The notes under the pieces are model-generated. The model made no database searches and was not told the origin of the DNA. It saw nothing but the letters and a program-made list of their open reading frames with translations. Source: an uncultured Acidobacteriota bacterium (GTDB taxonomy: Bacteria > Acidobacteriota > Thermoanaerobaculia > Multivoradales > UBA5704). From it: a stretch of 64,000 nt of DNA. Positions 39,470-64,000 of the stretch are shown in pieces; position 1 is the stretch's first letter; the number at the start of each line of letters is the position of its first letter. The stretch covers positions 5,802,452 through 5,866,451 of the forward strand of contig OY970373.1 in assembly GCA_963718645.1 (NCBI GenBank). Reading direction: 5' to 3'. Made by a program: the position numbers and the translations under genes.

Positions 39470-39505
39470 TTACCGGTTCTCTTTCAACACCGCGCACTTC
39501 CACGC

Positions 39506-40191: not shown

Positions 40192-40194
40192 GCC

Positions 40195-40560: not shown

Positions 40561-40725
40561 AGACGGCCCGCGCGAGTGCTCCAATGATCCCCACCCCTCC
40601 CGCGTAGTACCTCCGGGCCGGTTCCGACAGCGGGGCCGGCCCCCTCTTTCGACTCACAAGCAGGATCGGGGGGCGGTTCCTTTGTACGGGGCCGCCCCTT
40701 CTAGTTTTCCCAGGGAGAGCAAGCG

Positions 40726-41281: not shown

Positions 41282-42082
41282 TTGTCCTCGGAGAGAAGGG
41301 CTATTGTCGTGATAGCGGCGTACTTTGACGAAAGCGAGCGCGAGGATGGCACTTTTTGTGTCGCGGCTTACTGCTACTTCCCAGGGAAAGCAGAAAAGCT
41401 CGATAAACGGTGGCGTAAGATAATGGGTGGAAAAATTTTTCATGCTACCGATATGAATAATCGAGTAGGCGATTTTGAGGGCCTTGACCCGAGCATCAGT
41501 GACCAGATGTATCGCAAACTGATAGACGCTATCTTGAAGCACTTTGAATTTGGAGTTGTTCTTTCGCTTAACCCTCGTGACGTAACTGTAGAATGGCCAG
41601 GGCTTGACGGGTTCAAAACAGCTTATGCTCTTTGTTGTACTCTTGTTGTATCGACGATATCATCTCACCTTGACAGGTTGGGCATCAAATCTCGTGTGGC
41701 TTATATATTTGAGGCCGGACATAGACATCATAGTGAGGTGGAAAGATTCATGAATTCGGTGGCGCTCAGCTCTAATCGCTATCACTATCTCTCTCATTCT
41801 TTCGAGCCTAAAGACAGCGAGACACTATTACAGACCGCAGACCTTCTTGCCTGGGAGTGGGGTAAGTACATATCCGAAGTTAGTCAAAAAATGTCTATGA
41901 GACGGTCGTTGGAAGAGTTGTTATACAGAGATCCTCATAAGCAGATGGTGGGCAATCTCTCCACGAAAGATCTTGAAGAAGATATTGCAAAATTCAGAAC
42001 GATGGAGGAAATGGTGCGCAGTGCGCCGGATGCGTCTGCTTTCCTGAAGAAATTTAATCAGCGGCCAGCCCGGGAGCCCTAA
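41282..42082 (+). CDS. DUF3800-like protein (island cargo, AT-richer)
   Basis: N-terminal IAAYFDESERE (DUF3800 'DESG'-type motif) and C-terminal LQTADLLAWEW. Visibly lower GC than surroundings. Confidence 0.5.
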   Translation: MSSERRAIVVIAAYFDESEREDGTFCVAAYCYFPGKAEKLDKRWRKIMGGKIFHATDMNNRVGDFEGLDPSISDQMYRKLIDAILKHFEFGVVLSLNPRDVTVEWPGLDGFKTAYALCCTLVVSTISSHLDRLGIKSRVAYIFEAGHRHHSEVERFMNSVALSSNRYHYLSHSFEPKDSETLLQTADLLAWEWGKYISEVSQKMSMRRSLEELLYRDPHKQMVGNLSTKDLEEDIAKFRTMEEMVRSAPDASAFLKKFNQRPAREP

Positions 42083-42094
42083 AAGGCTGCCCCT

Positions 42095-42547
42095 CTAAGC
42101 GGTCAATAACTGGCCAACAGGACCCAACATCTCTAGTAGTATCTCCTCCTGGTCCGGTGTCAGTCTCTTGCCCGATCCCTCAAAGAGAATATATAGCTTC
42201 AGGGGGACAGAGAGGGAGTCTACCTCTATGTTATTGTCTTGAGTCTCAATAGGTCCGCCGTCCTTTCCAAATAACTCCACTGCTTTTGTTGGATGAAACC
42301 CTGTACGGTCTAAGACTATCTGAGATGCCTTCACTATAGAAGTTAGATCGTTGCTCTGAAGTGCCTTATGTAGTCCAGCCAATGCAGGCTCTACCAATTC
42401 GGCGAGACGTTCCTTTGCAGACTTCTTTACCTGTGGCGCTCTTCCACCGTGAGTCGCACAAACGGTAGAGCCGTTGATCGCCCACCGTTCGCACTGGCGG
42501 GAGCCGTCTGAGACGTGGGCTGTGCAGCGCTGTCTACGGGCTATCAT
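42095..42547 (-). CDS. Hypothetical protein with N-terminal Cys/His cluster (island cargo)
   Basis: RCTAHVSDGSRQCERWAINGSTVCATHGG zinc-finger-like N-terminus. 150 aa. AT-richer. Confidence 0.45.
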   Translation of the reverse strand: MIARRQRCTAHVSDGSRQCERWAINGSTVCATHGGRAPQVKKSAKERLAELVEPALAGLHKALQSNDLTSIVKASQIVLDRTGFHPTKAVELFGKDGGPIETQDNNIEVDSLSVPLKLYILFEGSGKRLTPDQEEILLEMLGPVGQLLTA

Positions 42548-42766
42548 GGGTCACGCCTTTCATGGGTGGCTGTTACCTCTGGACGGGCTGGACAGGTTGG
42601 CGTGCCGGGCACTCCTATTTATACTTATACTATTCTATTACTGGCCCACTATGTGAAGTCCGTGAAGTCTCCGGCTTCATCGTCCGGACTTCATGATGTC
42701 CCCCTTCTGAATTACGAGACTTCCCGCGTTAGACTTCATGAAGCGGCTTTGGTGAAGTGGAGAGCT

Positions 42767-43465
42767 TCACCCGACGTGCCGCCCCTGCTTCACGTCTCGG
42801 AGATGGGCTAATCCGGCTTTCCCCATACAGTGCCGGAAGCGCACCCTGCTTCTGAAGTGGTCCACGTACTCTCTGCACTCTATCCTGGTATTCTCTGCGA
42901 GGCAATCTTCATCCGCCCATGCGGCAAAACACGCTATAGTTGCCACCACCATGCGATCCTCGCCCAGAGTCTCAAGAACGGTAGTGAGTGACTTTCTCGG
43001 TTCCTCTCCGTAATAGAACGTGTGGTGCTTGAAACTGCCCAACCGCTTAAAGCCAAATTCCCTCAAGAAGTCTCCTAGATCCTTGTCCTCATCCGTCCCA
43101 AGATCGCCCAATTCCTGGAACTCACTTCTTAGTGCGGCATAGTCTTTAATCTCGGGCCAGTCGGCTACCTTCTTAATGCCGATGTCGAGAGAGCAGTGCC
43201 AAATGGCTTTTAAGGCTACTGCTCGCCCGTTTAGAGTAATCTCGGGCTTTATCTTTTCGACGATATGGTGTCCTAGAGGAGGCATGCACTTGATTGATAG
43301 ACTCTGCTCTCCTGAATTCCTGTCGAGCAGGAAGTTATAGTAATCTCTGTTTAGGGTCTCGACGATTCCCTTCTCGGCGTCTGGTTCATAATCCTCAAAA
43401 TCGACCGCAGATCCTTTGACGAATAGGGGGCGGGATTCTTGGCTTTCCCTCTGGGGTCTTGCCAT
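42767..43465 (-). CDS. Hypothetical protein (island cargo)
   Basis: ORF with probable start at MARPQRESQ. No recognised domain. Confidence 0.45.
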   Translation of the reverse strand: MARPQRESQESRPLFVKGSAVDFEDYEPDAEKGIVETLNRDYYNFLLDRNSGEQSLSIKCMPPLGHHIVEKIKPEITLNGRAVALKAIWHCSLDIGIKKVADWPEIKDYAALRSEFQELGDLGTDEDKDLGDFLREFGFKRLGSFKHHTFYYGEEPRKSLTTVLETLGEDRMVVATIACFAAWADEDCLAENTRIECREYVDHFRSRVRFRHCMGKAGLAHLRDVKQGRHVG

Positions 43466-43478
43466 TGTCGTTTCCTCT

Positions 43479-43712
43479 TCACTCAAGACACCCTTCACTC
43501 TCACGGTAATCTGGTCCACCACGGGGAGCCGCAGCGATGAACGCGGCGAGATCTTCCTCTTTCCAGCCACTCACACCAGGGCCGAGAATGACTCGGGGCG
43601 CCAGCCGGCCGGAGGACTCCCAGCGGTAAAGAGTCGCCCGGGAAATCCCCAGAAGACGGGCGGCTTTAGCGGGGCGAATGATCGGGGAGACGATCGGGGA
43701 TACAGACATCAT
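43479..43712 (-). CDS. AlpA-family phage transcriptional regulator / excisionase-like HTH protein
   Basis: LLGISRATLYRWESSGRLAP is the AlpA/Xis-type HTH. Confidence 0.7.
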   Translation of the reverse strand: MMSVSPIVSPIIRPAKAARLLGISRATLYRWESSGRLAPRVILGPGVSGWKEEDLAAFIAAAPRGGPDYRESEGCLE

Positions 43713-43826
43713 TTCGGTGCCTCCTTTGTTGCGCCGTGACACAGAGCGGAATGCGATGCTCTGCGATACCGCTCCATTGGACCACGCCGCCCTAGGGGCG
43801 CCGCAAGTTGAAAACTCTGAGAGTTT

Positions 43827-44366
43827 CTAACGTTTGACGGGGCGCGCCAGCTCGTACCAGATACTCGCGACGCGCTCGCTTGAGAGAGAGTATTCGTCCG
43901 CGACCTGATTAAAAACATCCAACATGGCAGGCTTTGGGTCACCTTCGATCAGCACAGCGACGCTTTCTGCAATGAACATGTCGCGGGAGTCAATGACGGC
44001 CTGCGCCGTGATTGAAGGGCCGCCGCCACTTCCTTTCAGGCCGAGAGCGGCGACAATCGCATTTCCCCCCTTCGGACGCTCTACGCACAGAGCCTTGGCC
44101 CATTGGTCGAACAGCTCAAGTACCCATCCGGGAATGTCGAGCTTCATACGGCGCGCTATGCGGTAGGCAGTAAACGCGTGGATTGGATTTCGGTTCCGCG
44201 CGTAGAGTACCCGAGAACGCTCTATGAAAAACTTCACTGACTTGGCCTTGGACCGTTGCCAAGCCTCCAATTGCCGCTGCCTTTCCGCGTCCAGTGGTTT
44301 GCTCTCTTCCATCATTGGCTCCGCGTGAACGTCACCTTTTCGCCCCGGCCGCGCCGAAGATTTCAT
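43827..44366 (-). CDS. Hypothetical phage/island protein
   Basis: 179-aa ORF whose start overlaps the integrase stop by 4 nt. No recognised domain. Confidence 0.4.
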   Translation of the reverse strand: MKSSARPGRKGDVHAEPMMEESKPLDAERQRQLEAWQRSKAKSVKFFIERSRVLYARNRNPIHAFTAYRIARRMKLDIPGWVLELFDQWAKALCVERPKGGNAIVAALGLKGSGGGPSITAQAVIDSRDMFIAESVAVLIEGDPKPAMLDVFNQVADEYSLSSERVASIWYELARPVKR

Positions 44367-45598
44367 CTCACCCGCTCCGCAATCCTCACCACGTTGGACC
44401 GCTCCTCCCCCGCGAGGACTCTTTCCACAAGATCCCCGAGCAAAATCACGGCTTGCCGTTTTTCCGCGTCATAGCCGGCGCGGTTGTAGGTGCGGGAGAT
44501 GCGGCCGGCGGCATGGTTCAAGAGCTGGTCTATGGTGTCAGGGCGGACCCCGGAGCGGCCGAGCCACGTTGCGGCCGTCCTCCGGAGGTCGTGCGGGGTG
44601 AAGTGGTCCAAGCCGGACCACGCCCGGAGCCGCGCCGAGCTGTGCGACAACCACGTGAGCCGCTTGCCGTCCGCGCGGGAGGCGAACACCCATTCCGTCG
44701 AGCCGGTGAGGGGGCGGAGAGCTTCAACCACCGCGAGAGCTTGCGGCGATAGCGGCACGCGGTGCGCGCGGTTGGTTTTCGTCAGCTCCGCCGGAAGGTT
44801 CCACCACCACCCCCGGGAGTCGCGCTCAAGGTCCCGCCAGCGCATAGAGAGCACCTCCCCGGGCCGCTGGGCGGTCAACAGGACCAGACGCCACGCGGCG
44901 GAGACGGCCGGCTGTAAGCGGTCGAAGAAGGGCCATAGGGCGCGGAGCTCATCCTCTGAGAGCACCCTTTCTCGCGGCTTCTCTGCATAGAGCCGCTTGA
45001 GGCCATGGACGGGATTGGTCTCGACGCGCTCTCTCTCCATTCCGAAGCTGAAAACCCGGGATATCAGGGTCCGGGTCCGATTGGCGCAGACGCCACCCCG
45101 ATCCAATGCGATCCTTTCGAGCAACTCGCGGACATCAGTCCGGCGGATCTCTGCGGCCGGCCGGGAGCCCCACACCGGGAGCACTTCAACCCGTAGTTTC
45201 CGCTCGTCTTCCTTCCAGGCGCGGAGCCGCTTGTTTCGCTTCGCGTGCTCTTCCAGGTAGAAGGCCGAGAGGGCTTCAAACGTCTCGCTTCCGGCTTTCT
45301 TGCGGGCGGCACGGTCGGCCTTCCGCTCGGCCATCGGGTCGCGGTCGTGGACCTTGACGCCTCCAAGGAGTTCCCGGGCCTTGTCCCGCGCCTTTTTCAG
45401 ACTGAGGGCCGGGTACTCGGCGAAGGTGATTCGACGCCGGCCGCCACTCGGGCCGTAGCGCAGAAACCAGAATTTGCGTCCACTCGGGAGGACACGGAGC
45501 CCGAGCCCGGGGACCTCGCCGTCCGCAAGCTCGAAGCGGGTCCCTTTGCTCGCGGTGCGGATCTGAAGATCGGAGAGGGGGGCAGTTGCACGCCTCAT
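44363..45598 (-). CDS. Tyrosine-type site-specific integrase (P4-like)
   Basis: N-terminal DUF4102-like arm-binding region (LSDLQIRTAKSKGTRFELADG...GLGLRVLPSGRKFWFLRY). Catalytic R...HxxR...Y (HDLRRTAATWL...LNHAAGRISRTYNRAGY). Start chosen at MRRATAPLS. Confidence 0.85.
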   Translation of the reverse strand: MRRATAPLSDLQIRTASKGTRFELADGEVPGLGLRVLPSGRKFWFLRYGPSGGRRRITFAEYPALSLKKARDKARELLGGVKVHDRDPMAERKADRAARKKAGSETFEALSAFYLEEHAKRNKRLRAWKEDERKLRVEVLPVWGSRPAAEIRRTDVRELLERIALDRGGVCANRTRTLISRVFSFGMERERVETNPVHGLKRLYAEKPRERVLSEDELRALWPFFDRLQPAVSAAWRLVLLTAQRPGEVLSMRWRDLERDSRGWWWNLPAELTKTNRAHRVPLSPQALAVVEALRPLTGSTEWVFASRADGKRLTWLSHSSARLRAWSGLDHFTPHDLRRTAATWLGRSGVRPDTIDQLLNHAAGRISRTYNRAGYDAEKRQAVILLGDLVERVLAGEERSNVVRIAERVR

Positions 45599-46289
45599 GG
45601 TCGGGTGCCTCCGGTTTGACGGGTGGACCTCAAGGCCCGCGCGGAATAGCCGTGGACCACTGGTGGACCACTGGTGGACGCGCTTGCATGGGTTGGCATG
45701 ATGCCGTATGATACAGGCGATGCCGCTAAATGTCCATGCTGTCAGTGACTTAGGGGGACGTGGCGAGACACCATGGAACCCCCCTGGCACAGACTCCGAA
45801 GCTGTAGGTCAGAGGTTCGAATCCTCTAGGGCGCACCATTTAAGTCACCTAAAATCAATGGTTTGCGGCGGGGGCTGACTCGGCTCCAGAGTGTCCTTGT
45901 GCAAAAGGACCCCTGGAGGACCGCTTCCGGCTGGCATCAGGATCCAACGGCTCCAGCGGGAGTGGTCACCCCCACTGGAGCCTGGTCGAGCCGAGGAGAG
46001 CTAGTTCAGCGGGCAGGTAGTAAGCCCGCCGGGGCACACCGTAGCGCTTCCCGCGCCTTCCACGGATCCCAATTCGTTCGCTTCGAGAAGACGGAGAGTT
46101 TCCTTGTTGAGCTTGAGCGACTCCCGGGTCTGGTGTTTGCCCTTCAGCAGGTTCTTTCTCATCGGCTTCTCCTTGTTGGTTAGCGCCCGCTGCGTTGAAG
46201 CGGGTCTAGGACCCGGACAAAATATATGACCAAGGGGTATGAGGCAAGCTCAGTTACAATGAAGACCCGTCCGGAAAGGGAGTGACTTT

Positions 46290-46589
46290 ATGCCCCGCTT
46301 GGCGATCGAAGAAGAGCAACTGGCGCGGTTCTGCCGGAAGCAGCACATCCGTCGGCTGTCCTTGTTCGGTTCCACGCTCGCGGGCACGGAACGGCCGGAC
46401 AGCGACGTCGATCTGCTGGTGGAGTTCGAGCCCGGCTGTGAGCCCGGCCTGCTCGGGTTGGCCTCGATGGAGGCCGAGCTGGCCGCGATGCTGGGCGGGA
46501 AAAGGGTCGACCTGCGCACCCCACAGGATCTCAGCCGGTATTTCCGCGATCAGGTCCTGGGTGGCGCAGAGGTCCAATATGCGGGATGA
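46290..46589 (+). CDS. Minimal nucleotidyltransferase (MntA-type antitoxin of HepT/MNT module)
   Basis: [24 protein letters not shown] is the GS...DxD NTase motif. Confidence 0.7.
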
Positions 46590-46920
46590 GGATCGCATCC
46601 GTATCCTCCACATGATCGATGCCGCCGAAATCGTGGCGCAGTTCATGGAGGGACGGAGCCGTGACGACCTCGATCGAGACCGTATGCTCCTCTTTGCCCT
46701 GGTGCATGCGATCGAAGTCCTCGGCGAGGCGGCGAGCAAAGTCTCAATCGACGGCCGGGCCGCCGCGCCGCAGATACCGTGGGGGACCATCGTCTCGATG
46801 CGCAACCGGCTTATCCATGGCTACTTCGACATCGACACGACGATTGTGTGGAAGACGGCCACTGTGGAAGTCCCCGCCTTGCTTCCCTTTCTGCGAACGC
46901 TGGCCGATGTGGCGACCTGA
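46579..46920 (+). CDS. HepT-like HEPN toxin (DUF86)
   Basis: Rx4HxY HEPN motif RNRLIHGY. Overlaps MNT gene by 11 nt. Confidence 0.7.
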
Positions 46921-47076
46921 AGTCGGACAATCATCGGGGCCGGCTAGCTAGTCTCGGCGTGACCCTGCGCGTGGCCTGCTCCGCGGCGCTCAGCCTCACC
47001 ATGGCGACTCGATTAGCTCTTCAATCCATTAACATGCCGATAGAAATAGGCGCGCTTTCCACGCGCTAGTCGAGTC

Positions 47077-47838
47077 ATGCCTAAAGTTTGGATCGGTTCC
47101 GCGTTCAAGATGCCGGAGCGGCTATATCGCTACAGACCCCTTGCAGACGAGAAGCACTGGGGTCACCTTGAGCAGATCTTGCTGGATTCCACAATGTATG
47201 GGGCGCCGCCTGGGGTTCTGCAGCAGGAAGATCCCGAAGACTGCCGCATTGCTGTGAATACCCGCTGCACGTTCGACGAGTTCAAGCAGAGCCGCTATGG
47301 TCAAGAGCCGACGCAGAAATACCTGGATTTGTCTGAGCCTGAAAGCGATTTCTACCTCCGCGAACATTACGAGGATCTAATGAAGCCAGATTTCGCTCCT
47401 GCCGTGGTTGATTCGCTTCGGCGAAGCATAGACCAGTACGGCGTGATCTGTTTCTCCGTAGATGGAGACATCCCAACACAATGGCAGAGCTATGCCTCCC
47501 AAGGGCGAGGAGTGTGTCTGGAGTTCGACCCGCTCAAGGACTCGGACTTCTTCATAAAGGTCAAGCCTGTCGACTATGTCGATGTGCTCGAACCGGCACA
47601 TGTCTTTACTGACACGAGTGAAGCGCAGGTCCGCAAGCGTCTGTATACCAAACTCGTCAAATATGAGAGTGAGGCGGAGTTTCGTGCCCTCTTCGTTGGT
47701 GGAGCTGATCAACAGATACCCTTCAGGCCCGAGGCGCTGATAAGGGTCAAGCCGGGCTCGGAGATGGATGAGGCGAATCGCGGCCGCTTCGAAGCGATCC
47801 TCCGGAAGCGGTGGGCGAAGACAGGGCTTGAAGTCTAG
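47077..47838 (+). CDS. DUF2971 family protein
   Basis: N-terminal LYRYRPL...W and EDPED motifs typical of DUF2971. Sits in an AT-richer stretch. Confidence 0.5.
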   Translation: MPKVWIGSAFKMPERLYRYRPLADEKHWGHLEQILLDSTMYGAPPGVLQQEDPEDCRIAVNTRCTFDEFKQSRYGQEPTQKYLDLSEPESDFYLREHYEDLMKPDFAPAVVDSLRRSIDQYGVICFSVDGDIPTQWQSYASQGRGVCLEFDPLKDSDFFIKVKPVDYVDVLEPAHVFTDTSEAQVRKRLYTKLVKYESEAEFRALFVGGADQQIPFRPEALIRVKPGSEMDEANRGRFEAILRKRWAKTGLEV

Positions 47839-48418
47839 CGGCGGTTCTCTCTTTTCGGCGCCCGGAATACGCCAAAGGGGAAGCCGCAGCAAGACGCCTC
47901 CGGTCTTCTATTTTCCGTCGGTCGGCCTTGCCGCTGCAGCTTTTGGCCTTGGCTCACGCGGGGTGTTCCATCAGCGGAACGCGCCATTGTGGTCGCAGCC
48001 CAGGTTTTTCGGCATCCCACATTTTGAGATCAGGCAGAGCACTGGAGCGGCGGCTGATCACCATCATCAGGGCTCGGCGAGATTAGGAGCAGACTGCCTC
48101 CCTCGGGGCGCTCCAAGCGCTCTTCCAAGGAGTGAATGACCTCCTCCCTCATAAGGCTTTCGCCGGTCTCAGCAGACGCGTGCCGAGCCAGTTTCTCCGC
48201 CCTGTCGTTCTTGATGCTTAGGACCAGTGCCCGCCTTATGGTGGACCTCCACGTAGCCCATCAACGTGCGGACCATAGTCGACATATGCGCACACTTCTA
48301 CATGATTGTATTGATTACGCTCTTCTAATATCCTCTTGAGGCATCTCACCGAGCCTCCTCAGAGAAGGCGGCGAAGGATCTCAACCGTTTCGAGTAATCA
48401 AGCAACGGAGGTGGCTAG

Positions 48419-49762
48419 ATGCTTGCCCAGATCCCTGCCCGGCTTGAACGGCTGCCTATTACATGGATGCATTACAGGCTACTCCTGGTGCATGGCTTCG
48501 GTTGGCTCTTCGATGCGATGGACGTGGGTATTATCACCTTCGTACTGGCGCCTCTGGCAAAGGACTGGAAATTGGCACCAACCGAAGTTGGACTAATTGG
48601 CAGTGCCAGTCTTGCAGGAATGTTTGTAGGTGCCCTCGTCTCAGGCATACTGGCGGACCGTTGGGGGCGCAAGACCGTGTTCCAAATTACTCTGCTAGTG
48701 TTCGCTCTTGGTACCGCGCTGTGTGCCGTAGCTTGGAATGTGGGCGCGATGTTGGTCTTTAGATTCATTGCCGGCCTGGGATTGGGTGGCGAGCTGCCAG
48801 TGGTTTCGTCCCTGATGGTGGAATTCATTCCTAGCGCCCATCGGGGCCGTTTCATTGTCGTGCTCGAAAGCTTTTGGGCCTATGGATGGTTTCTTGCTGC
48901 GCTGATCGCGTTTCTGCTCATCCCTAGCCATGGATGGAGGCTCGCCTTCCTGGTAGGCGCAGTTCCCGCGGTGTTTGTTTGGGTCATTCGGCAGAAGCTA
49001 CCGGAGTCGCCGAGGTGGCTTGAGAGTAAGGGACGAGTTGAGGAAGCGGGAGCAATCGTTTCAGCGATGGAGCTTGAGACAGAGCGAAGGATTCATAGGC
49101 GCCTAGCTCCGATGACTGAAACGAGCGAGTTGAAGACCGAATCCCTCCGAAGTGCCAGCTTCGCCGATCTCTGGAAGCCAGCGTATCTTCAAAGAACGGT
49201 TATGCTTTGGATTCTGTGGTTCTGTCTAGTTTTCGGGTACTACGGGATTTTCATCTGGTTGCCGTCTTTGCTAGTGAAAGCCGGCTATTCGATGGTAAAC
49301 TCGTTCCTGTACGTTATGTTGATAACTCTTGCGCAGATCCCGGGCTATTTCAGCGCCGCCGTCTTGGTAGACCGCCTGGGCCGTAGGCCGGTCATTTCAG
49401 CGTATCTTGCAATGTCGGCGACATGTGCATTTCTCTTCGGCCAAGCGACAACAACACCTGGCATCCTGCTTTGGGCATCGCTAATGTCATTTTTCAACCT
49501 GGGAGCGTGGGGAGGCGTGTATACTTACACACCCGAACTCTATCCAACACATGTAAGAGCGACTGGAGCTGGGTCTGCGGCAGCATTTGGGCGCTTTGGA
49601 GGAGTGCTTGCACCGCTGACCGTAGGTTGGCTTTTGCCCCACATCGGGCAAGGGGGCGTTTTGAGCCTGAATGCATTAATGCTGCTGCTGGCTGCAACTT
49701 CTATCGCCGTTCTTGGAAAAGAGACACGGGGCAAAACCCTTGAGGAAATCGCGCATGATTAA
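48419..49762 (+). CDS. MFS transporter
   Basis: 12 TM. GRKTVF / RWGRK MFS loop motifs. Confidence 0.8.
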   Translation: MLAQIPARLERLPITWMHYRLLLVHGFGWLFDAMDVGIITFVLAPLAKDWKLAPTEVGLIGSASLAGMFVGALVSGILADRWGRKTVFQITLLVFALGTALCAVAWNVGAMLVFRFIAGLGLGGELPVVSSLMVEFIPSAHRGRFIVVLESFWAYGWFLAALIAFLLIPSHGWRLAFLVGAVPAVFVWVIRQKLPESPRWLESKGRVEEAGAIVSAMELETERRIHRRLAPMTETSELKTESLRSASFADLWKPAYLQRTVMLWILWFCLVFGYYGIFIWLPSLLVKAGYSMVNSFLYVMLITLAQIPGYFSAAVLVDRLGRRPVISAYLAMSATCAFLFGQATTTPGILLWASLMSFFNLGAWGGVYTYTPELYPTHVRATGAGSAAAFGRFGGVLAPLTVGWLLPHIGQGGVLSLNALMLLLAATSIAVLGKETRGKTLEEIAHD

Positions 49763-49811
49763 GGCCGACCCAGAGGAGAAACAGGCTGCTTCCCCCGAGC
49801 GACAGGGATTC

Positions 49812-51002
49812 ATGAGCAAGTTGAGGAAGCACGCCGACATTCACATCCACATTCCATTAATAGGTGTAAGCGTACATGTGAAAACATGGCCAGCGTTGTG
49901 TGTGGTTCTGGTGCTAGTGCTTTCTACAATTTTGATTCCGACTTACCTTCAGTATTCTGCCAAGCATGTCTCAAAACTCCCGGCGGTGGCTGTCTTCTTG
50001 CCAGACTGGACACGTCCATTGGACCATCCTTTCTATCAGGATGGCTTTGTCCAGAAACGTGGCTTTGACCAAGCACAAAGAGAATGTGAAGGAAACGGTG
50101 CTCCTCGCGTCGAATATGTCCAGATGAAACTGGAGGCGACTCCGGGAGAGCTTCTGACGGAGATGAAATCTCATTATTCCGAAGGAGCAGTTTTTTTTGT
50201 GATGACAATGAGCTCAAAGATCAAGCCCCTTCTGCCAGGTTTTAGGGCTTGGCGGAACGAGGTCCTTAAGGAAGGAGGCCGGCCGCCAGTACTCGTTGCC
50301 ACGGTCGCAAGCGCTCCAGACCTCGCAGATGCCAATAACGGTGTGGTGAGATGGTACATTAGGTCTGAGGAAGAGAGCGAACTCGTTGCGGAATTTCTTC
50401 GCTGGAGGCGTGCCGTTGGACACGCCGCAGTTTTTTACATCACACGGACGCCAGGCGTGTCAGACGACTCTTACGGGCAGCGTGGGATGGAGGTATTTCG
50501 TGAGCGGTTCCTTGCGCTTGGTGGTGAGGTTGAGACGCACGGTGTGACTGCGGATACTGCCGCTGACGAAGTCAAGAACTTTGTTAAAAATGGACCTCAG
50601 CCTGCGGCCGCCGGCGTATTCGTTGTCGGGTACGGGAAGATGGTCAGTGCTACGCTAAATGCTCTGATAGCTGCAGGTTTTTCTGGTTCCATCGCGTCTA
50701 CTTCCACTCTTACTGAACGCGATTGGCAGCCAACAGATCAAGGCGCTGACGATCGAATTTTTACTGTGTTACCGCGCCTTGAAAAGGCCTCGCTAGAGGG
50801 CGATGACCGCAACGTGGTATTCTATTTTGCCAGGATTACCCTTAGACGAGTACTGCAAATGACGGTGACCGATAGGGACCCAGCGAAATTCGTCACGCGG
50901 TGGACTTCCGGCCAAGACGCTTCTCAGCTAAGTGAAGAATATCTCGCCAATGGAGACACGCTTGTGCGTGTCGAGGTCGTTGGGAAGGAGCGTTGGCGGT
51001 GA
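49812..51002 (+). CDS. Periplasmic-binding-protein-like protein (type I PBP fold, LivK-like), membrane anchored
   Basis: N-terminal TM then ~370-aa domain with alternating beta-alpha pattern of ligand-binding receptor family proteins. Start uncertain (49755 or 49812). Confidence 0.45.
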   Translation: MSKLRKHADIHIHIPLIGVSVHVKTWPALCVVLVLVLSTILIPTYLQYSAKHVSKLPAVAVFLPDWTRPLDHPFYQDGFVQKRGFDQAQRECEGNGAPRVEYVQMKLEATPGELLTEMKSHYSEGAVFFVMTMSSKIKPLLPGFRAWRNEVLKEGGRPPVLVATVASAPDLADANNGVVRWYIRSEEESELVAEFLRWRRAVGHAAVFYITRTPGVSDDSYGQRGMEVFRERFLALGGEVETHGVTADTAADEVKNFVKNGPQPAAAGVFVVGYGKMVSATLNALIAAGFSGSIASTSTLTERDWQPTDQGADDRIFTVLPRLEKASLEGDDRNVVFYFARITLRRVLQMTVTDRDPAKFVTRWTSGQDASQLSEEYLANGDTLVRVEVVGKERWR

Positions 51003-51562
51003 CAGAGGCCGTGATAGTCGTCGATGTACAAAGAGACTTCTGTAAAGGCGGAACTCTTGAGGCGACCGACACGCTCTCGCTGTTGGAGCCTCTGAAATCA
51101 TACATTGTGAAGGCTCGCAAGAGAGACTGTACGATTGTGTTTACGCAGGACTGGCATCCGGTGGATCACAGATCATTCGAAGCGAATGGGGGACCATGGC
51201 CAGTGCATTGCGTTGCCGGTACACTTGGGGCAGAACTGATGCCAGCACTTGAAGCGCGGGAAGATGACATAGTTGTACGTAAGGGAACGGATCGTAATGC
51301 GCCGGGCTATTCTGCGTTCGAAGCTCCAGAATTGGTGAGAGAGCTTCGTAGAAGAGGCGTCAAATCTCTCGCGGTTTGTGGAATTGCGACTGAGTACTGC
51401 GTTCGTGCGACCGCGTTGGACGGTGCTAAGGCAGGATTCGGCGTTGTTGTTTTAGTGGACTTAGTGCGGCCAGTGGCACCTCGCGCAGGTTACGAAGCTC
51501 TTCATGAGTTGGCTCAGGCGGGAATAGCCTTGAAGCGATCTGATGAGCGCGCGTCGGCCTAG
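50993..51562 (+). CDS. pncA: Nicotinamidase/pyrazinamidase (isochorismatase family)
   Basis: VDVQRDFCKGGTL, QDWHP, catalytic Cys in AVCGIATEYCV. Classic PncA motifs. Confidence 0.8.
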   Translation: MAVTEAVIVVDVQRDFCKGGTLEATDTLSLLEPLKSYIVKARKRDCTIVFTQDWHPVDHRSFEANGGPWPVHCVAGTLGAELMPALEAREDDIVVRKGTDRNAPGYSAFEAPELVRELRRRGVKSLAVCGIATEYCVRATALDGAKAGFGVVVLVDLVRPVAPRAGYEALHELAQAGIALKRSDERASA

Positions 51563-51705
51563 ATTGAGATGATCTTTTGCGCCGTTGGGATTTAGTTTAT
51601 AGATATTTTTGAACGGCGACAACACAAAGAAGGCGAAGAAGGACAACCGTGCTTCAGAAATTTCCGCTTTTGATCTGAATGTCACTCTCGATCGAGGTCA
51701 TAGAT

Positions 51706-52107
51706 ATGCGAGAGCCAGCATTACATGCAACGGCTTCTGCGAAGCTGGTGGTTCGCAACGACGATTTGGCCAGCGCTTTGCAAATGGAGCCGAGTGATGA
51801 ATTCCCGGCCGTGTTCGCCACATCACGCATGATAGCCTTGATGGAGGTTGCAGCTGCCCGCCTACTCCGCTCTTACCTAGAGCTGGGTGAGTTATCAGTC
51901 GGCGTTTCCGTTGACGTTGTACATTCCTTGCCCACACCACCTGGGCATACCGTTACGGCTACGGCCGAGTTTTTAGGGCGTGAAGGAAAGTTTCTTGCCT
52001 TTGGTGTTGTTGCCTACGACGAGGCGGGTGAGATTGGACGAGGAACTCACAGGCGAGCTATCGTTTCATATTCCAGGCTACTTGCGGGTGCCGCGAGACG
52101 ATTCTAA
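51706..52107 (+). CDS. Hotdog-fold thioesterase (FlK-like)
   Basis: FATSRMIALMEVAAARLL...TVTATAEFLGREGKFLAFGVVAYDEAGEIGRGTHRRAIV resembles the fluoroacetyl-CoA-thioesterase-like hotdog family. Confidence 0.6.
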   Translation: MREPALHATASAKLVVRNDDLASALQMEPSDEFPAVFATSRMIALMEVAAARLLRSYLELGELSVGVSVDVVHSLPTPPGHTVTATAEFLGREGKFLAFGVVAYDEAGEIGRGTHRRAIVSYSRLLAGAARRF

Positions 52108-52672
52108 GGTGCAGATCAGGGCTGATGACATAAAATGAAGCAACTGCACATTGAATCGAAGTAGATCCGAAGCCGAAGACAACTAAACAGCCAGGCAGAG
52201 TAGACGACTGATGGCTCCTGTGTTCGAGGCGCTCATCTCATGTAGAGAGCTACCAGTTCTAGCGGCGACTCATCGACAACAAGGTTTCAGTGAGATCGGG
52301 AGCGGGCCTCCACCCTTTGAGGCGCTCCAAGCGCTCTTCCTAGGAGTGAATGACAGCCTTGGTGAGGCTCTCGCCGGTCTCGGCAGACACCTGCCGAGCG
52401 AGCTTCTCCGCCATGTCGTTCTTGATCCTGATAGCCATAGAGAGGATCTCCTGCGTCTAGAAACTCCAATGAATCCTAGATTTTTCCGGCCCGGGTGGCA
52501 AACCGGGCAAGGGTGGGTCCTACCGATACTTCCTCATCTTCCGGTACCCTCGGCCTCCAGCGGTGCCGAGGCTGCGACCACTACCCCGGTGAGGTAACGG
52601 GTGATGACTCCTTGGAGGCCATGCGCTCGCAACCCTCTTCTCTCAAGGCGCCGACGATGGCATCGAACCCGC

Positions 52673-53014
52673 TCAGGCTGCCTGAAGCACAAAGTTGACG
52701 CGGACCGCCTCAAACGGGAACACGATCCGGCCTTCGTCCGTCTTCCGCAGGATCCCAACGTCGAGCAACGCATGAGCATCTCCATGCACAGCCTTGACGT
52801 CTCGGCCGACCCTGCGAGCCAGCTCGCGCAAGGTCAAAGGGCCTGCGCCCGCCATCACCGACAGCAGCTCCCAGCGTTTCTGCGTCAGCACTTTGAACAG
52901 CAGCGCCGGCGTCTCGAAGCTGATGAGCTCGCCTTGGGGCTCCCCCTCGAACGCTTGCAGGAAACGGTGATTGGCCTCCTCGCGGGATGAGACTTCCAGG
53001 GTCACTGCATGCAT
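52673..53014 (-). CDS. wHTH DNA-binding protein (putative TA antitoxin/transcriptional regulator)
   Basis: Start at MHAVTLEV. C-terminal LLSVMAGAGPLTLRELARRVGRDVKAVHGDAHALLDVGIL winged-helix. Confidence 0.5.
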   Translation of the reverse strand: MHAVTLEVSSREEANHRFLQAFEGEPQGELISFETPALLFKVLTQKRWELLSVMAGAGPLTLRELARRVGRDVKAVHGDAHALLDVGILRKTDEGRIVFPFEAVRVNFVLQAA

Positions 53015-53203
53015 TTCAGGATCTCCAGTGGTCCACGTCGTTCCAGAAATCGGCAAGCAATCGCGCCGGCGTAGTGAAAACGTAAGGAGATTCCTCCTCA
53101 CCGACGTGCTTGTGATCCCCCTTGCCCGCCTCATTGTCGTAGCGCAGAACGCACACGCCATATAAATCATACTTGCTGCTTCATCAATCCAGAAGTGGCA
53201 CGT

Positions 53204-53302
53204 TATGTGTAGGGGCGGCCCTATGTGGCCGCCCTGGGAGGGGGAGATTCTCGACCGGACCGGCCTCCCACCCAGGGCGGCCACATAGGGCCGCCCCTAC
53301 AA
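53204..53302. repeat. Near-perfect 33-bp inverted repeat (GTAGGGGCGGCCCTATGTGGCCGCCCTGGGAGG ... CCTCCCACCCAGGGCGGCCACATAGGGCCGCCCCTAC) with a 25-bp spacer
   Basis: Read directly. Arms are reverse complements except for a 3-nt insertion. Confidence 0.85.
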
Positions 53303-53702
53303 AATCCCACATTTCTAGGATGACGGTGAACTTAGGTCGCAGCAGCGGAGCTTGGGGGCGCAGGTTCGCCCACCTATGTCTGAGAGGCTCAGGACTCCGG
53401 AGTCCTCGCCGCCCAAGCCGATCGGGGTAGAGTTCCACTCGCAGAGGCTCGCTCCGAGTCCTGCCTACAAAAGGGAGAGAAGGCATCATGAAGAAAAAGC
53501 CCGGGCCGCTCAGCTTGAACCGCGAGACCGTGCGCTGCCTTTCGTCGGCCACACTGTGGGGAATCGCCGGCGCAGCCGCCGAGACCGGCTCCAACCCTCA
53601 CAGTGTGTGCGTCACCTGTTCCTGTGTGGGTTGCATCACCCCACCGGCATAGTTCGAGGGTTTCGGCTCAAGCGGCGATCAGGGCGAGGTCCTGCCCCGC
53701 TA

Positions 53703-54278
53703 CTACCGATACCGCTTCATCTTCCGATACCCCTCGGCCTCCAGGGGCGCCGAATCACCGACCATTTCGACCTCGGTGAGGTAGCGGGTGATGAAGCCCT
53801 GGAGGCTCATGCGTTCGATCTGCGCGACGTGGACCATCTCGTGGGCGAGGATCGAGCGATCCTTCTGGTACTTCGGCTTGAGGAAGATGACGGTGCCCAT
53901 CGTCCGTCCCCCTTCGTTGCGGCTGCCGAGGCCGTAGGAGGTCAGGAGAGCGCGCAGCGCCGGGTCGTCGGGGAGAGGGAACGCCTTCGCCACGACGACC
54001 CGGATCCGTTCCGGCTCCTTGACGCCGATCTCGGTCGCCATCTGGACCTCCGGTGGAGTCAGGGAGCGGCCGGCGGTCTCGAAGTCCTTCTCGACGCTCT
54101 CGATCCAGGCGACGGTCGGCGGGCTGAACCGCGCGACTTTCTGGACGACTTGCGGCGGTGGATCGTCCAGCGCCGCCAACTGCTGCGTGGTCAGGGGCGG
54201 CCGGGCCGCGCAACCGGCGGCGAGGAGCAGGAGCAGGACGATCCGCCCGCGGCGAACGTTTATCGGCGACCTCATGGC
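53703..54278 (-). CDS. Lipoprotein with HExxH zinc-metallopeptidase motif
   Basis: Start MRSPINV..., lipobox LLAAGCA, ILAHEMVHVAQ. Its last ~125 bp are duplicated at 52500-52625. Confidence 0.55.
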   Translation of the reverse strand, partial: AMRSPINVRRGRIVLLLLLAAGCAARPPLTTQQLAALDDPPPQVVQKVARFSPPTVAWIESVEKDFETAGRSLTPPEVQMATEIGVKEPERIRVVVAKAFPLPDDPALRALLTSYGLGSRNEGGRTMGTVIFLKPKYQKDRSILAHEMVHVAQIERMSLQGFITRYLTEVEMVGDSAPLEAEGYRKMKRYR

Positions 54279-60253: not shown

Positions 60254-62788
60254 TCACGGGGCTGGCAATGGCCGCTGCCAGATGCCGTTGCCGTGCGTCA
60301 CCAGCCGCAGCAGCCGCTCGGGGGCGTAGAGCACGAGCTCCATGCTCATCACGCCCGGGTAGAGACCTTCGCTCCAGGGCTGCCAACTCGTCCCGCCGTC
60401 GACGGAACGGTAGACGCCGCGGTCGGTGGCCACGTAGAAATGACGGGAGTGGGGATCGGCCGGATCGATCAGCAGGCTCCCGGCCCAGACGTCGGGGAGA
60501 TGGCCGCCGTCGAGGTCCAGCCACTTTTGGGGCGCTCCGGGTGCCCTGTCGAGCTTCCAGACGTGGGAGAAGCCGTAGCCGCCGAGCGTGAGGTAGAGGG
60601 TCGATTCGGTCGCGTCGTGCGGATCGAAGAGGAGCGACATCGGATAGCCGGTCTCGGGCAGATCGTAGGTGATCCGTTCCCAGGTGCGCCCCACGTCCCG
60701 GGACTCGAAGACGTTCATCCGGTTGTAGCGGGGCGCGGTGGCGATCACCAGGTGGTCGTCGTGCTTCGGGGCCACGGCCAGGGAGAAGACCGGGTTCCCA
60801 TCCAGCTCGCGGCCGAGGCTGGTGGGCGCCCAGGTGACGCCCGGGGCGTCGTTCGAGGTGCAGGACTTCTCGGGGATGCTCTTCTCCGCGGCCGAGAGCC
60901 CGGCCCAATCGTGAATCGGGGCCCTGTCCGAACGGTAGACCACGTCGCGCGCGGCGTAGAGGCGGTTCGGGTTCGAGGGCGCGAGCACGAGGGGCGCGTT
61001 CCAGGAGACGTTGTCGAGGCAGTTGGCGCTGCGCCGATACGGGTCGACGTCGGGGATGTAGCAGGGATCGAAGGCCGAGGCGGGATCGATCGGCGGCGCC
61101 TTTTCATCCTTGCGCCAGCGGCCGAGCTGACGGTTGCTGTGCGTGGTGAAATAGCCGATGCCGTTCTCGTCGTCGAAGGTGGAGAAGCCCGCCTCCTGCC
61201 CCCAGCCGGACACGATCGTCCATGGAGGCTTGGCGCTGGCGCCGCCGGCTCCTTGATAGCGCAGGAAGCCCACGCCATAGTCCTGGGGCACGCCGGCGAT
61301 GAAGTCGCGATCCTTCTGCGAGATCGAAACGCCGCGGTAGAACTGCAGGGTGTTGAATCCCTGGTTGACCCGTTCGATCGTGCGCCCGCCGTCTGCCGAA
61401 CGGTAGACGCCCTGATCGCAGGCGAAGTAGACGATCTCGGGCTCGCCCGGCGCGTAGACGATGGCGTGGAAGTCGACGAAGATCAGCGAATCGGTCGTCT
61501 GCGTGTAGACGGCCTGCGCCACCAGCCGGTTCTCTTTCCAGACCACGAAGCTCTCGAGCGTCTTGCCGCCGTCGAAGGAGCGTTGGGGGTTGACGTAGCC
61601 GACGAAGAGCTCGTCGGGCTCCTGCGGGTGGACCGCCAGGGTGTTGGCGTACCACCCCTGCGTATAGCCGCCGTCGTTGGTGGTGCTCCGCGTCTCCCAG
61701 GAATCCCCGCCGTCGACGCTGCGCAGAAGATAGGACGACGGCGCCAGCAGCGGCGTTGGAATGTAGAGGCATTTGAAACGTTTGTTCTCCGGATAGGTGA
61801 TGCCGTCGGCGCCGCCGTTCTCGTCGGCGCCGGGATCGACCTTGTTGTTCGCGAAGGTGAGCTGGGTCAGGTTGCCGATGCTGACGTAGAGGGTGTCGGG
61901 GTTGGAGGCCGAGCGGGCCAGCTCGGCCTTGCCCTGATAGGTCACCGGCAGGCCGCGCACGAGATGGGTCCAGGTGGCGCCGCCGTCCCTCGTCTTGTAG
62001 AGGCCGTGGCCGGGACTGGCGAAATCTCCGCACCCGGCCACGATCTCGCGCGGGTTTTTGGGATTGACGCTCAGCGAGCTCGCGGCGACGACGTTGAGGG
62101 AAAGCTTCCAGTCCTCCGCCGCGCCGGAGCCGCCGTTGCTCTTCGAGGAGTCGAGCCGGTAGATCCCCTCGGAGGTGGCGGCCCAGACGGTGAAGCGGCT
62201 CGGATCGGCGGGATCGGGGACGATCGAGAGGGCCTGCACGCCGGTCTGCTGGCTCGGTTGGCGGTCGAGGCTCTTCGTCCAGGTCTTGCCGCCGTCGTTC
62301 GAGCGGAGGATGCCGATCCCGTAGTTGCCGCGCGAGGCCTGGTTGTCGAAGCCCCGCGCCGTCGTCTTTTGGTAGCCGTAGACCTCGCCGGTGCCGATGT
62401 AGAGGATGTCCGGATCGCGCGGATCGATCGCGATGGCGCCGACCCCGAGGACCGGAAAGCCGGTGTCCACGTAGCGCCAGCGCCAGAGGGGCTTGCCGGC
62501 GTCGCGCCAGTTGGCCGCGCGGGGATCGCCGTTCTGGGGCGCGCCGGAGAGCTCGCTCACCCAGAGGCCGCCGCTCGCCGAGCCGGCGAACACGTGGTTG
62601 GGATTCCGCGGATCGACGGCGAGCGAGATCACGCGTCCGCCCAGCCCCTCGTTGCCGGGCTCGCCGAAGGGGCCGAGCGCGCGCCACCCCTCCTCGGCAT
62701 GAAGGGCGCGGGGGGTAACCGCGAACAGCGCGCACAGGATGATGGCCAGACAGAGGATTACGACTCGCTCGCGAGCGTCCTGCCCCAT
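60254..62788 (-). CDS. Secreted sortilin/Vps10-like BNR repeat protein (paralog of 28678-31875)
   Basis: Signal peptide. BNR motifs (SNDGGKTWT, TRDGGATWT, SVDGGDSWE, SFDGGKTLE, SADGGRTIE, SRDVGRTWE, SVDGGTSWQ). Confidence 0.8.
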   Translation of the reverse strand: MGQDARERVVILCLAIILCALFAVTPRALHAEEGWRALGPFGEPGNEGLGGRVISLAVDPRNPNHVFAGSASGGLWVSELSGAPQNGDPRAANWRDAGKPLWRWRYVDTGFPVLGVGAIAIDPRDPDILYIGTGEVYGYQKTTARGFDNQASRGNYGIGILRSNDGGKTWTKSLDRQPSQQTGVQALSIVPDPADPSRFTVWAATSEGIYRLDSSKSNGGSGAAEDWKLSLNVVAASSLSVNPKNPREIVAGCGDFASPGHGLYKTRDGGATWTHLVRGLPVTYQGKAELARSASNPDTLYVSIGNLTQLTFANNKVDPGADENGGADGITYPENKRFKCLYIPTPLLAPSSYLLRSVDGGDSWETRSTTNDGGYTQGWYANTLAVHPQEPDELFVGYVNPQRSFDGGKTLESFVVWKENRLVAQAVYTQTTDSLIFVDFHAIVYAPGEPEIVYFACDQGVYRSADGGRTIERVNQGFNTLQFYRGVSISQKDRDFIAGVPQDYGVGFLRYQGAGGASAKPPWTIVSGWGQEAGFSTFDDENGIGYFTTHSNRQLGRWRKDEKAPPIDPASAFDPCYIPDVDPYRRSANCLDNVSWNAPLVLAPSNPNRLYAARDVVYRSDRAPIHDWAGLSAAEKSIPEKSCTSNDAPGVTWAPTSLGRELDGNPVFSLAVAPKHDDHLVIATAPRYNRMNVFESRDVGRTWERITYDLPETGYPMSLLFDPHDATESTLYLTLGGYGFSHVWKLDRAPGAPQKWLDLDGGHLPDVWAGSLLIDPADPHSRHFYVATDRGVYRSVDGGTSWQPWSEGLYPGVMSMELVLYAPERLLRLVTHGNGIWQRPLPAP

Positions 62789-62955
62789 GAGATATCTCCA
62801 GGTTAGAGCTGCTTTGGCGGCAGGATACCAAACTTCTTTTCCGTGGCGAGGCTCTTCGCAAAGGATCGAGGGCTATCACCACAACCGACTCCTGGAGGCG
62901 CGATAAGGGCGCTGCAAGTTGCAGGAGTTGGGAAAGAGGAGGCGGTACTTGGGCG

Positions 62956-63819
62956 GTGTTTGTGATATCCTTAGGCGCCATGGACTATCTGCCCACGCTT
63001 GAAGATGATGCCTTAGTGACACCGGAGGTCGGCGACTGGGCTGAGGACAAGTACCAACTCGTCAGGTGTTATGCCACGATCTTTTCCAGCTCGATGTCTG
63101 GAAAGTGGGGATCTCTGGTCTACATGGACCTCTTCGCCGGTGCTGGTCGTTCGCGGATACGCGAAAGCAGTCGCATTATTCCAGCTTCGCCGCTGGTTGC
63201 TCTTGACATCGGTAAGCCATTTTCCAAATATATCTTTGCCGAGCTTGACACTACCAAGATCTCCGCCTTGGAGCAACGCATCGGGCGATCCTATCCGGAT
63301 CAAAACGTGGCTTTCGTTCCAGGCGACTGCAATGATCGGATTGAGGACATCGCTGCTCAGATTCCGAGTCTAAGCAGGGGCTCCAGCGTACTCACTTTCG
63401 CCTTCATTGATCCCTATCGCTTAAACAATTTGCGTTTTCGAACTATCGAGCGGCTCGCCAGAAACCGCAAGGTCGACTTCCTGATATTACTACCTTCGGG
63501 GATGGATGCCAACCGGAACGAGGTGCTATATACTCGCGCTGAGAATAGTATCGTTGCCAACTTCATCGGCGATTCAGATTGGCGTGCCAGGCGAAAGGCC
63601 AGTCGTCTTGGCTTTGGAGATTTCGTAGTCGACGAATTTGGAAGATCCATGGCGAGGATCGGCTACCACTACGATGGGCTTGGCGACATGCAGTTGATTC
63701 GGTCTACTGAGAAAAACTTACCTCTGTACTACTTAGGTTTTTTCAGCAAGCATCCACTAGGCTCCAAATTTTGGGAGCAGTGCAGAAAGTACACGAATCC
63801 CCAGAGATCTCTCTTCTAA
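62956..63819 (+). CDS. tcmP: Three-Cys-motif partner protein TcmP
   Basis: N-terminal [18 protein letters not shown] matches the TcmP family signature. Immediately upstream of a Gp37/Gp68 three-Cys gene. AT-richer. Confidence 0.6.
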
Positions 63820-63835
63820 CAATAGCGGAGTACTT

Positions 63836-64000
63836 ATGTCCGAGGCATCTAAGATCGAATGGACCGATGCAACGTGGAACCCGATCCGCGGCTGCACAAA
63901 ATTAAGCGCCGGCTGCAAACACTGCTACGCAGAGAGGTTTGCAGAACGCTTCCGTGGCACTCCTGGGCATCCATATGAACAAGGATTCGATCTGCGCCTA
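63836..64000 (+). CDS. Phage Gp37/Gp68 family (DUF5131) three-Cys-motif protein, N-terminal fragment (continues past window end)
   Basis: [33 protein letters not shown] contains the CxxxxxxCxxC motif and the conserved EWTDATWNP start. GGAG RBS. Confidence 0.7.

Follow-up and report, generated by a model that had tools for sequence, protein, structure and literature searches.

The 64,000-nt stretch of Acidobacteriota DNA analyzed here (the window) ends in two adjacent genes, tcmP and the 5' part of a DUF5131 ("Gp37/Gp68") gene, which take up its last 1.1 kb. The pair forms a two-gene cassette of ~1.8 kb, acquired horizontally and standing alone between ordinary chromosomal genes, and the window itself holds one more copy of a known, uncharacterized cassette. 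What is new here is the predicted RlmJ-like fold of TcmP, a weak homology between DUF5131 and SplB, and a link of the family to SOS genes in 18 of 80 loci. The features at this end of the window are the following.

60254 to 62788, minus strand: gene for an 844-amino-acid (aa) BNR/sortilin-like secreted protein (Pfam Sortilin-Vps10 and BNR)
62789 to 62979: divergent intergenic region of 191 nt (composition profile; alignment to the related loci L089 and L090)
62912 to 62924: perfect palindrome CTGCAAGTTGCAG, unique in the window
62963 to 62971, plus strand: extended -10-like element TGATATCCT, read from the sequence, 8 nt before the tcmP ATG
62980 to 63819, plus strand: tcmP, 279 aa (TIGR04474, E = 8.1e-42)
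63827 to 63830, plus strand: GGAG Shine-Dalgarno sequence of the DUF5131 gene, read from the sequence, inside the 16-nt intergenic gap
63836 to 64000, plus strand: 5' end of the DUF5131 ("Gp37/Gp68") gene, 55 codons (PF07505, E = 1.6e-19), cut by the window end

The hidden Markov model (HMM) matches behind both gene assignments lie far beyond chance. TcmP matches the NCBIfam model TIGR04474 over residues 19 to 270 of 279 with 144 bits (cut-off 53), and the 55-residue DUF5131 fragment matches Pfam PF07505 with 70.9 bits (cut-off 28.9) and also phrog_2045; the cysteines of this fragment are spaced C20-x6-C27-x2-C30. A first-pass annotation made from the DNA letters had already named both genes, and the TcmP signature string that it quoted, the CxxxxxxCxxC of the downstream protein and the drop in GC content are all there. 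With genes, HMM matches and GC drop as reported, that observation is confirmed, with two small corrections. The tcmP gene had been placed in the right region, where an open reading frame (ORF) runs on the plus strand from GTG 62956 to 63819, but translation almost certainly begins at ATG 62980, since the nearest homologues open with MD(Y/H/P)LP and the gene calls on a Logan metagenome contig include the very same 279-aa product. DUF5131 does follow closely downstream, with 16 nt rather than 17 between the tcmP stop codon (TAA, 63817 to 63819) and its own ATG at 63836. Its full product is expected to be 244 aa long; the Logan contig encoding the identical TcmP carries a 244-aa PF07505 gene, another plus-strand gene 140 nt later, and the same minus-strand neighbor upstream as the window. 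An Rfam scan of positions 62000 to 64000 returned no match.

With both HMM cut-offs passed, the genes adjacent and the three-Cys motif in place, the window pair is a member of the TIGR04474-PF07505 pair. That definition carries no function, and the subfamily found here is set apart by being tcmP-first, chromosomal and essentially absent from phages. We collected 80 loci from GTDB representative genomes and 6 metagenome loci, 86 altogether, and in 85 of them DUF5131 lies directly 3' of tcmP on the same strand, which bears out the earlier description of the pair as recurrent. The gap has a median of 9 nt and several pairs overlap; the DUF5131 gene is translationally coupled to tcmP. Neither the clustering nor the census of neighbors in the 80 genome loci brought up a third conserved gene beside the pair. 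Both families are large, with ~3,000 TcmP clusters at 50% identity and more than 8,000 DUF5131 proteins found at an identity of at least 70%. The pair had also been described as functionally unassigned, and we found no functional study of it in the searchable literature.

The composition of the DNA sets the cassette apart from its surroundings. The GC content is 0.69 to 0.71 at positions 61800 to 62800 and 0.49 to 0.56 from 62800 to the window end, and it begins to fall within the intergenic region, which in the composition profile forms the left edge of an AT-richer island. The BNR/sortilin-like gene, at 0.65 to 0.71, has the host level and is the left flank, outside the cassette. The first-pass annotation had a secreted protein preceding the module, which is correct, but this gene sits on the opposite strand and is thus divergent from tcmP. 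We could follow the layout past DUF5131 in L089, a JGI contig that is syntenic with window positions 60429 to 64000 at 79% DNA identity and has the order BNR-type gene (minus strand), tcmP (278 aa), DUF5131 (244 aa) and a gene for a VIT+vWA secreted protein. The low-GC stretch of L089 (0.53 to 0.55) comprises the two cassette genes only, and the VIT+vWA gene is back at 0.64 to 0.67. This contrast runs through the family: of 75 loci, ~70 have a cassette with a lower GC content than its flanks (by up to 0.25), and the difference persists inside SOS operons. Between the window and L089, synonymous differences (pS) amount to 0.73 in tcmP and 0.69 in the DUF5131 fragment, against 0.30 in the BNR gene, and dN/dS values of 0.057 for tcmP and 0.02 for DUF5131 indicate strong purifying selection. 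To us this suggests that the cassette is horizontally moved or exchanged more often than the DNA around it, although the contrast may be inflated by compositional bias at saturated sites.

Among GTDB representatives, the nearest relative of the window TcmP (72% identity) is found in L037, a Thermoanaerobaculia metagenome-assembled genome (MAG). In this relative (L037, 1643 to 2483) tcmP is split into two overlapping ORFs by an apparent frameshift, next to an intact DUF5131.

TcmP matched no family in the Pfam search. When its AlphaFold2 model (predicted local distance difference test [pLDDT] of 93.9) was compared with the PDB by Foldseek, most of the top ranks (E of 5.9e-7 to 2e-5) were held by chains of RlmJ, the Escherichia coli 23S rRNA m6A2030 methyltransferase (DUF519), and of the DUF519 homologue LPL1258, and the RlmJ/DUF519 chains also gave the best TM-scores (0.49 to 0.54). 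The modeled protein has an RlmJ-like class I S-adenosylmethionine (SAM)-methyltransferase fold with the RlmJ-type helical subdomain. Reading the two proteins side by side, we found five colinear motifs: YLDTHAGAGRY of E. coli RlmJ corresponds to TcmP motif I, also 11 residues long, YPGSPLIA to IPASPLVA, LTELH to FAELD, ADG to GDCN, and IDPPY to FIDPY, a DPPY-like motif IV. Residues D50, G54, E88, N118 and D144-P145 of TcmP are invariant or nearly so, and motif IV has the form (I/V)DP(Y/F), one proline fewer than DPPY. The SAM-binding motif I of TcmP looks intact, and a base-pocket motif of the D-P-aromatic kind is present.

Since fold and motifs agree while the sequence profiles join at motif I only, TcmP is predicted to be an RlmJ-type binder of SAM and a flipped-out base that stands outside the RlmJ family. 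Neither the sequence profile nor a DPPY catalytic motif places it among RlmJ/DUF519 proteins, and the differences (DPY in place of DPPY, a TM-score of ~0.5, a profile link limited to motif I) extend to the way of working, RlmJ acting alone on rRNA.

For DUF5131 we used a full-length proxy, the 244-aa protein P0241, which is 93% identical over the 55 residues of the window and was retrieved with the full-length homologue from L037 as query; the 55-aa fragment as query gave only fragments of at most 97 aa. P0241 matches PF07505 over its full length (330.9 bits) and is basic (pI 9.6), and the family is at least 70% identical across phyla, with C20, C27 and C30 invariant in 39 homologues. Its model (pLDDT 79.8) shows a beta/alpha barrel-like core and a disordered Cys loop. 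RadicalSAM.org/SFLD lists DUF5131 as a radical SAM subgroup, Megacluster-5-2, beside spore photoproduct lyase (SPL; 5-3) and MJ0683-like proteins (5-1) (PMC9477430). In hhalign, DUF5131 aligned to the neighboring COG1533 SplB-like radical SAM proteins over 139 columns (probability 65%, E = 5.9e-5), and this alignment lays NPxRGC...GCxxCYA on the CxxxCxxC loop with a 3-residue insertion, the following strands aligning too. DUF5131 thus resembles SplB/SPL-like proteins (COG1533) in the cluster loop, in the strands that follow it and in its megacluster, and the genes of both are found in operons linked to lexA, in L026, L032, L072 and L074 next to each other. It differs from them in being ~100 residues shorter and in always needing a TcmP partner.

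Two variants of DUF5131 were seen at the third cysteine. In a Methylomirabilota MAG (L038, 3514 to 5358), a 614-aa DUF5131 protein contains an intein-like insert with a LAGLIDADG homing-endonuclease domain, which splits PF07505 exactly at the third Cys of Cx6Cx2C (GCKNC|LAPET...); the usual targets of inteins are sites in nucleic-acid enzymes that are critical for catalysis. In L082 (8538 to 9281) and L083 (1865 to 2488) this Cys is replaced, giving GCKNRYAE for GCKNCYAE, in proteins that are otherwise intact (325 bits on PF07505); these are either decaying copies or sequencing/assembly variants.

The neighborhoods of the cassette point to DNA damage. When all ORFs of the 80 genome loci were clustered, the only recurrent neighbors were DNA-damage genes, and Pfam confirmed their identities: canonical or Bacteroidetes-type LexA in 13 of the 80 loci, DnaE2 and SplB-like radical SAM proteins in 5 each, and ImuA, ImuB and a DinB-like Y-family polymerase in 4 each. 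The survey of genomic context proposed in the first-pass annotation was in this way carried out, and its outcome, SOS and translesion genes, had not been foreseen there. At least one SOS-type gene is present in 18 of the 80 loci, mostly on the same strand as the cassette and spread over at least 7 phyla, whereas we infer that lexA would lie within 10 kb of a random gene in fewer than ~1 of 80 loci. The arrangements are diverse, at least seven in number, and include lexA-tcmP-DUF5131-imuA-imuB-dnaE2 (Burkholderiales, Chromatiales), lexA-Ypol-dnaE2-tcmP-DUF5131 (Aminicenantes), lexA-tcmP-DUF5131-(x)-dinB (Nitrospirae), lexA-like-(x)-tcmP-DUF5131 (Bacteroidota, Ignavibacteria) and splB-like-tcmP-DUF5131 (NC10, Chitinophagales). 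A census of the two genes closest to the cassette on either side was likewise headed by S24/LexA (6), Radical_SAM (4) and IMS (4), with ~290 families seen once or twice. At the level of the family, the cassette is therefore associated with SOS genes.

Comparable systems exist. Radical SAM genes of the SplB type are known to belong to SOS regulons (PMC8565304; PMC3765255), and the two-gene operon COG1573-COG4277, which encodes a uracil-DNA glycosylase-like and a radical SAM protein, is a proposed DNA base-excision repair system found in the SOS regulons of several phyla (PMC8565304). TcmP-DUF5131 resembles the latter as a two-gene cassette that is SOS-linked in several phyla, and it is embedded in imuA-imuB-dnaE2 operons of the mobile lexA-imuA-imuB-dnaE2 mutagenesis cassette in L017, L020, L021, L067, L045 and L051; the protein families of both systems differ from TcmP and DUF5131. 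We found no description of LexA control of tcmP-DUF5131 in the literature.

The cassette appears, from the DNA letters upstream of tcmP, to carry its own extended -10 promoter. The element TGATATCCT was not called by a generic promoter scan, and no Shine-Dalgarno sequence precedes tcmP; the same layout (TGnTAnnnT, ~8 to 9 nt, start codon) recurs in stand-alone cassettes and is found in L001, L081, L082, L084, L085, L037, L007, L012, L089 and L078. Since the extended -10 sits ~8 nt before the start codon, the tcmP mRNA is predicted to be leaderless or nearly so. Potential operators were seen in individual relatives. In L078, an Ignavibacteriaceae locus with no lexA nearby, the tcmP promoter reads TTGACA-gcACGACAAAAATGTCG-TATACT-8 nt-ATG and the palindrome ACGACAAAAATGTCGT fills the spacer between TTGACA and TATACT; L058 and L033 have two copies of this palindrome, ACGACA-N4-TGTCGT, in the divergent promoter of a lexA-like gene. 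The tcmP genes of L041 and L043 are preceded by perfect Cheo boxes, and the lexA operon of L017 carries CTGTATATAAATGCAG.

Two further palindromes recur in relatives of the window copy, GCACA-N6-TGTGC in the promoter spacer of the Thermoanaerobaculia loci L001, L082 and L084, and CTAC-N5-GTAG at about -53 in L007, L008, L012 and L084. Both are candidates for the LexA box of Thermoanaerobaculia. The window has neither, and the L037 promoter is without the GCACA-N6-TGTGC palindrome. A second perfect GCACA-N6-TGTGC, together with a CTAC-N5-GTAG site, was noticed ~2 kb 3' of the cassette of L001 (13000 to 14100), in repetitive, probably noncoding DNA whose multiframe ORFs read as degenerate repeats (…RPFLQETQPFF…). 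A generic dyad count returned no universal motif.

Because the only recurrent neighbors are lexA, imuA-imuB-dnaE2, dinB and splB-like genes, in many cases within one operon, and because the spacer palindrome of the stand-alone L078 copy recurs at a lexA-like promoter in a related lineage, we tentatively propose a mobile, damage-linked enzyme of two subunits, TcmP and DUF5131, that acts on DNA during the damage response. Binding of SAM would fall to TcmP, along with a pocket that takes up a flipped-out base, and DUF5131 would be a divergent [4Fe-4S]/radical-SAM-type enzyme from the neighborhood of SplB and spore photoproduct lyase, contributing Fe-S/radical chemistry related to that of SplB. 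As a single enzyme, the two would have nucleic acid, most probably DNA, as their substrate and would process or reverse a DNA lesion, or mark damaged DNA. Gene identities, obligate pairing, folds and motifs, SOS neighborhoods and the lack of a phage context are shown by the analysis; cluster binding, SAM cleavage, the substrate and LexA control of stand-alone copies are inferred. The first-pass suggestion of nucleic-acid modification is still plausible.

A more specific form of the proposal, which we regard as doubtful, would make the pair a split radical-SAM, SOS-controlled mobile DNA-repair device. Here TcmP, as the Rossmann-fold partner, would hold SAM and the flipped-out damaged or methylated base, the small Fe-S barrel subunit DUF5131 would supply the electron/radical chemistry for an oxygen-independent direct reversal of the lesion (an alkyl adduct or a UV cross-link, say), and in every host the cassette would take on that host's LexA operator in its promoter spacer.

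The pair has so far been filed only as "phage protein" or "defense candidate," and its neighborhoods shift the leading hypothesis to the DNA-damage response. If the proposal is true, a new radical-based DNA repair or marking activity would join the SOS repertoire and a mis-annotation as defense or phage genes would be corrected. Cultured carriers include Geobacter hydrogenophilus DSM 13691, Geobacter sp. AOG1, Geothermobacter hydrogeniphilus HR-1 and Pedobacter frigiditerrae RP-1-13, and the predicted operators, the predicted RlmJ-like base pocket and the putative Cx6Cx2C cluster site are further testable handles.

Several observations weigh against a role in the damage response, some of them, taken up below with anti-phage defense, by favoring another explanation. 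As many as 62 of the 80 loci have no SOS neighbor, and the 64-kb window contains no lexA, imuA/B, dnaE2 or dinB. The window copy is stand-alone and has no recognizable SOS operator in its sequence: no known LexA motif was found in the window, with consensuses that come from other groups and may not be those of this lineage, and the palindrome CTGCAAGTTGCAG, unique in the window and neither palindromic nor conserved in L089 or L090, was rejected as probably not an operator. Neither an operator nor cotranscription thus places the cassette in an SOS regulon of the window genome. Scans upstream of tcmP with the known LexA consensuses (E. coli, Cheo, alpha, Geobacter, Bacteroidetes and cyanobacterial) showed no overall enrichment, and only individual sites stood out (L041 and L043). 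On the protein side, the profile of TcmP aligned to that of RlmJ in hhalign at motif I only, with a probability of 12%. DUF5131 has a Cys spacing of Cx6Cx2C and not the canonical CxxxCxxC, gives no PF04055 match even at E ≤ 10, and therefore does not qualify as a radical SAM protein by motif and Pfam model; a Foldseek search with its model had no match at E ≤ 1e-3, SPL and SuiB being among the weak ones. Its place in the radical SAM superfamily is accordingly plausible and weakly supported. Finally, DUF5131 occurs alone in 181 phage records, mainly of Gordonia and Mycobacterium phages.

Defense had also been suggested in the first-pass annotation, and we consider it a less likely explanation that the pair serves anti-phage defense or self-marking, by modifying host nucleic acid or by producing an altered nucleotide with which phage replication is blocked. 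Such a block has a precedent in the radical-SAM viperins. In PADLOC, TcmP and DUF5131 match the A and B profiles of the candidate systems PDC-M41 and PDC-M30, with adjacent genes giving E = 2.6e-25 for PDC-M41A and 4.8e-22 for PDC-M41B, so that the candidate label stands. Yet these systems are candidates only, we found no report of an experimental phage-protection test of the pair in the literature, and the window TcmP aligns to the N-terminal two-thirds of PDC-M41A (TcmP residues 18 to 179 only, ~180 residues at E ~1e-25), whereas the homologues that match it over the full length (E = 2.5e-64) belong to another, plasmid-borne subfamily with the reverse order, DUF5131 then TcmP. It is this plasmid subfamily that adjoins Abi, GIY-YIG, DEAD-helicase and PIN genes. 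Among the loci of our set, a DUF262 gene (NsnA-like in L029, the sole one scanned) directly follows the cassette in L018, L028 and L029, L070 has a fourth on the other strand, ~3 kb downstream, and restriction-modification genes lie upstream of the cassette in 2 loci; most loci have no nuclease or other defense gene nearby, and ~6 of the 80 with defense neighbors compare with the 18 that have SOS neighbors. In S. meliloti, the TcmP protein SMa2243 is encoded near the defense helicase Hna and is coregulated with it (PMC12445080). The AT-richness of the cassette and its high pS relative to the flank resemble the turnover of defense genes, but the conservation of DUF5131 across phyla and its dN/dS of ~0.02 are unlike those of arms-race proteins.

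In two of the plasmids, L092 (NZ_CP009155.1) and L094 (NZ_CP021649.1), a long (~425 aa, PDC-M30A-like) and a short TcmP paralogue come after DUF5131. The run in L094 is methyltransferase, DEAD helicase, GIY-YIG, DUF5131, TcmP, TcmP and PIN, and in L092 the DUF5131 and TcmP genes are cargo between TniB and TniQ genes of a Tn7-like element.

That the pair modifies RNA instead, as an RlmJ-like adenine methyltransferase with a radical-SAM partner making a complex rRNA or tRNA modification in the manner of RlmN/Cfr or MiaB, seems to us quite improbable. The nearest structures to TcmP are those of an rRNA methyltransferase with colinear motifs, radical-SAM RNA methylases are well known, and most loci lie among housekeeping genes. 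A patchy, mobile cassette that is AT-richer than its hosts would, however, be unusual for modifiers of the translation machinery, no ribosomal or tRNA genes recur nearby, the neighbors that do recur (LexA, the Y-family and DnaE2 polymerases, SplB-like proteins) act on DNA, and the nearest detectable relatives of DUF5131 are DNA-repair-type radical SAM proteins.

Close to refuted is the notion that the genes are a phage DNA-metabolism module in a prophage or remnant that runs past the window end: the family name Gp37/Gp68, the phrog_2045 match, the phage records of DUF5131 and the GC drop at the window end speak for it, but L089 returns to host GC in the VIT+vWA gene right after DUF5131, the layout is repeated on the Logan contig that encodes the identical TcmP, and no integrase or phage structural gene adjoins the cassette in close relatives. 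Nor were phage structural families found among 267 neighbor genes (the two nearest per side), so that flanking structural, lysis or integrase genes are seen neither in the synteny with L089 nor in the close relatives or the census. TcmP of the window type has no relative among the 2.9 million viral contigs of IMG/VR, only two matches, at 23% identity, in 50,697 phage genomes, and 11 distant matches (25 to 29% identity) in 72,556 plasmids. Since TcmP is nearly absent from viral data while DUF5131 alone occurs in phages, the "phage origin" ascribed to the pair in the first-pass annotation suits the name of DUF5131 and not the pair. With chromosomal flanks free of phage genes in L089 and the close relatives, the module does not lie in a prophage structural region, and the cassette is not part of a prophage.

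The window does contain a second, larger AT-richer island, at positions 39271 to 54000 (GC 0.53 to 0.64 against ~0.70), which starts directly after a tRNA-Pro/Arg/Arg cluster (39271 to 39582) and encodes a P4-type tyrosine integrase (44366 to 45790, minus strand; Phage_integrase and Arm-DNA-bind_3) along with a DUF3800 protein, an MFS transporter and an isochorismatase. The island is probably an integrative element. Between this integrase-bearing island (39.6 to 54 kb) and the tcmP cassette lie 8.8 kb of host-GC genes, which also argues against a common prophage.

Close Thermoanaerobaculia/Acidobacteriota relatives of the cassette sit among metabolic genes. In L084 (6545 to 11918) it lies between the genes for the FAD/2Fe-2S and molybdopterin subunits of a xanthine-dehydrogenase/purine-catabolism cluster, and the Thermoanaerobaculia loci L007, L012 and L060 likewise have purine-catabolism neighbors (allantoicase, OHCU decarboxylase). 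Integron-integrase-like tyrosine recombinase genes are found 1.5 to 10 kb from the cassette in 4 of the 80 loci (L007, L014, L022 and L067), in L067 directly upstream of lexA. A conserved protein of ~260 to 285 aa without a Pfam match (cluster 15) is encoded beside lexA-like or splB-like genes in L026, L032, L033, L040 and L058; in L033 and L058 its gene is divergent from the lexA-like gene across the ACGACA-N4-TGTCGT sites, and it may be another uncharacterized SOS-linked gene.

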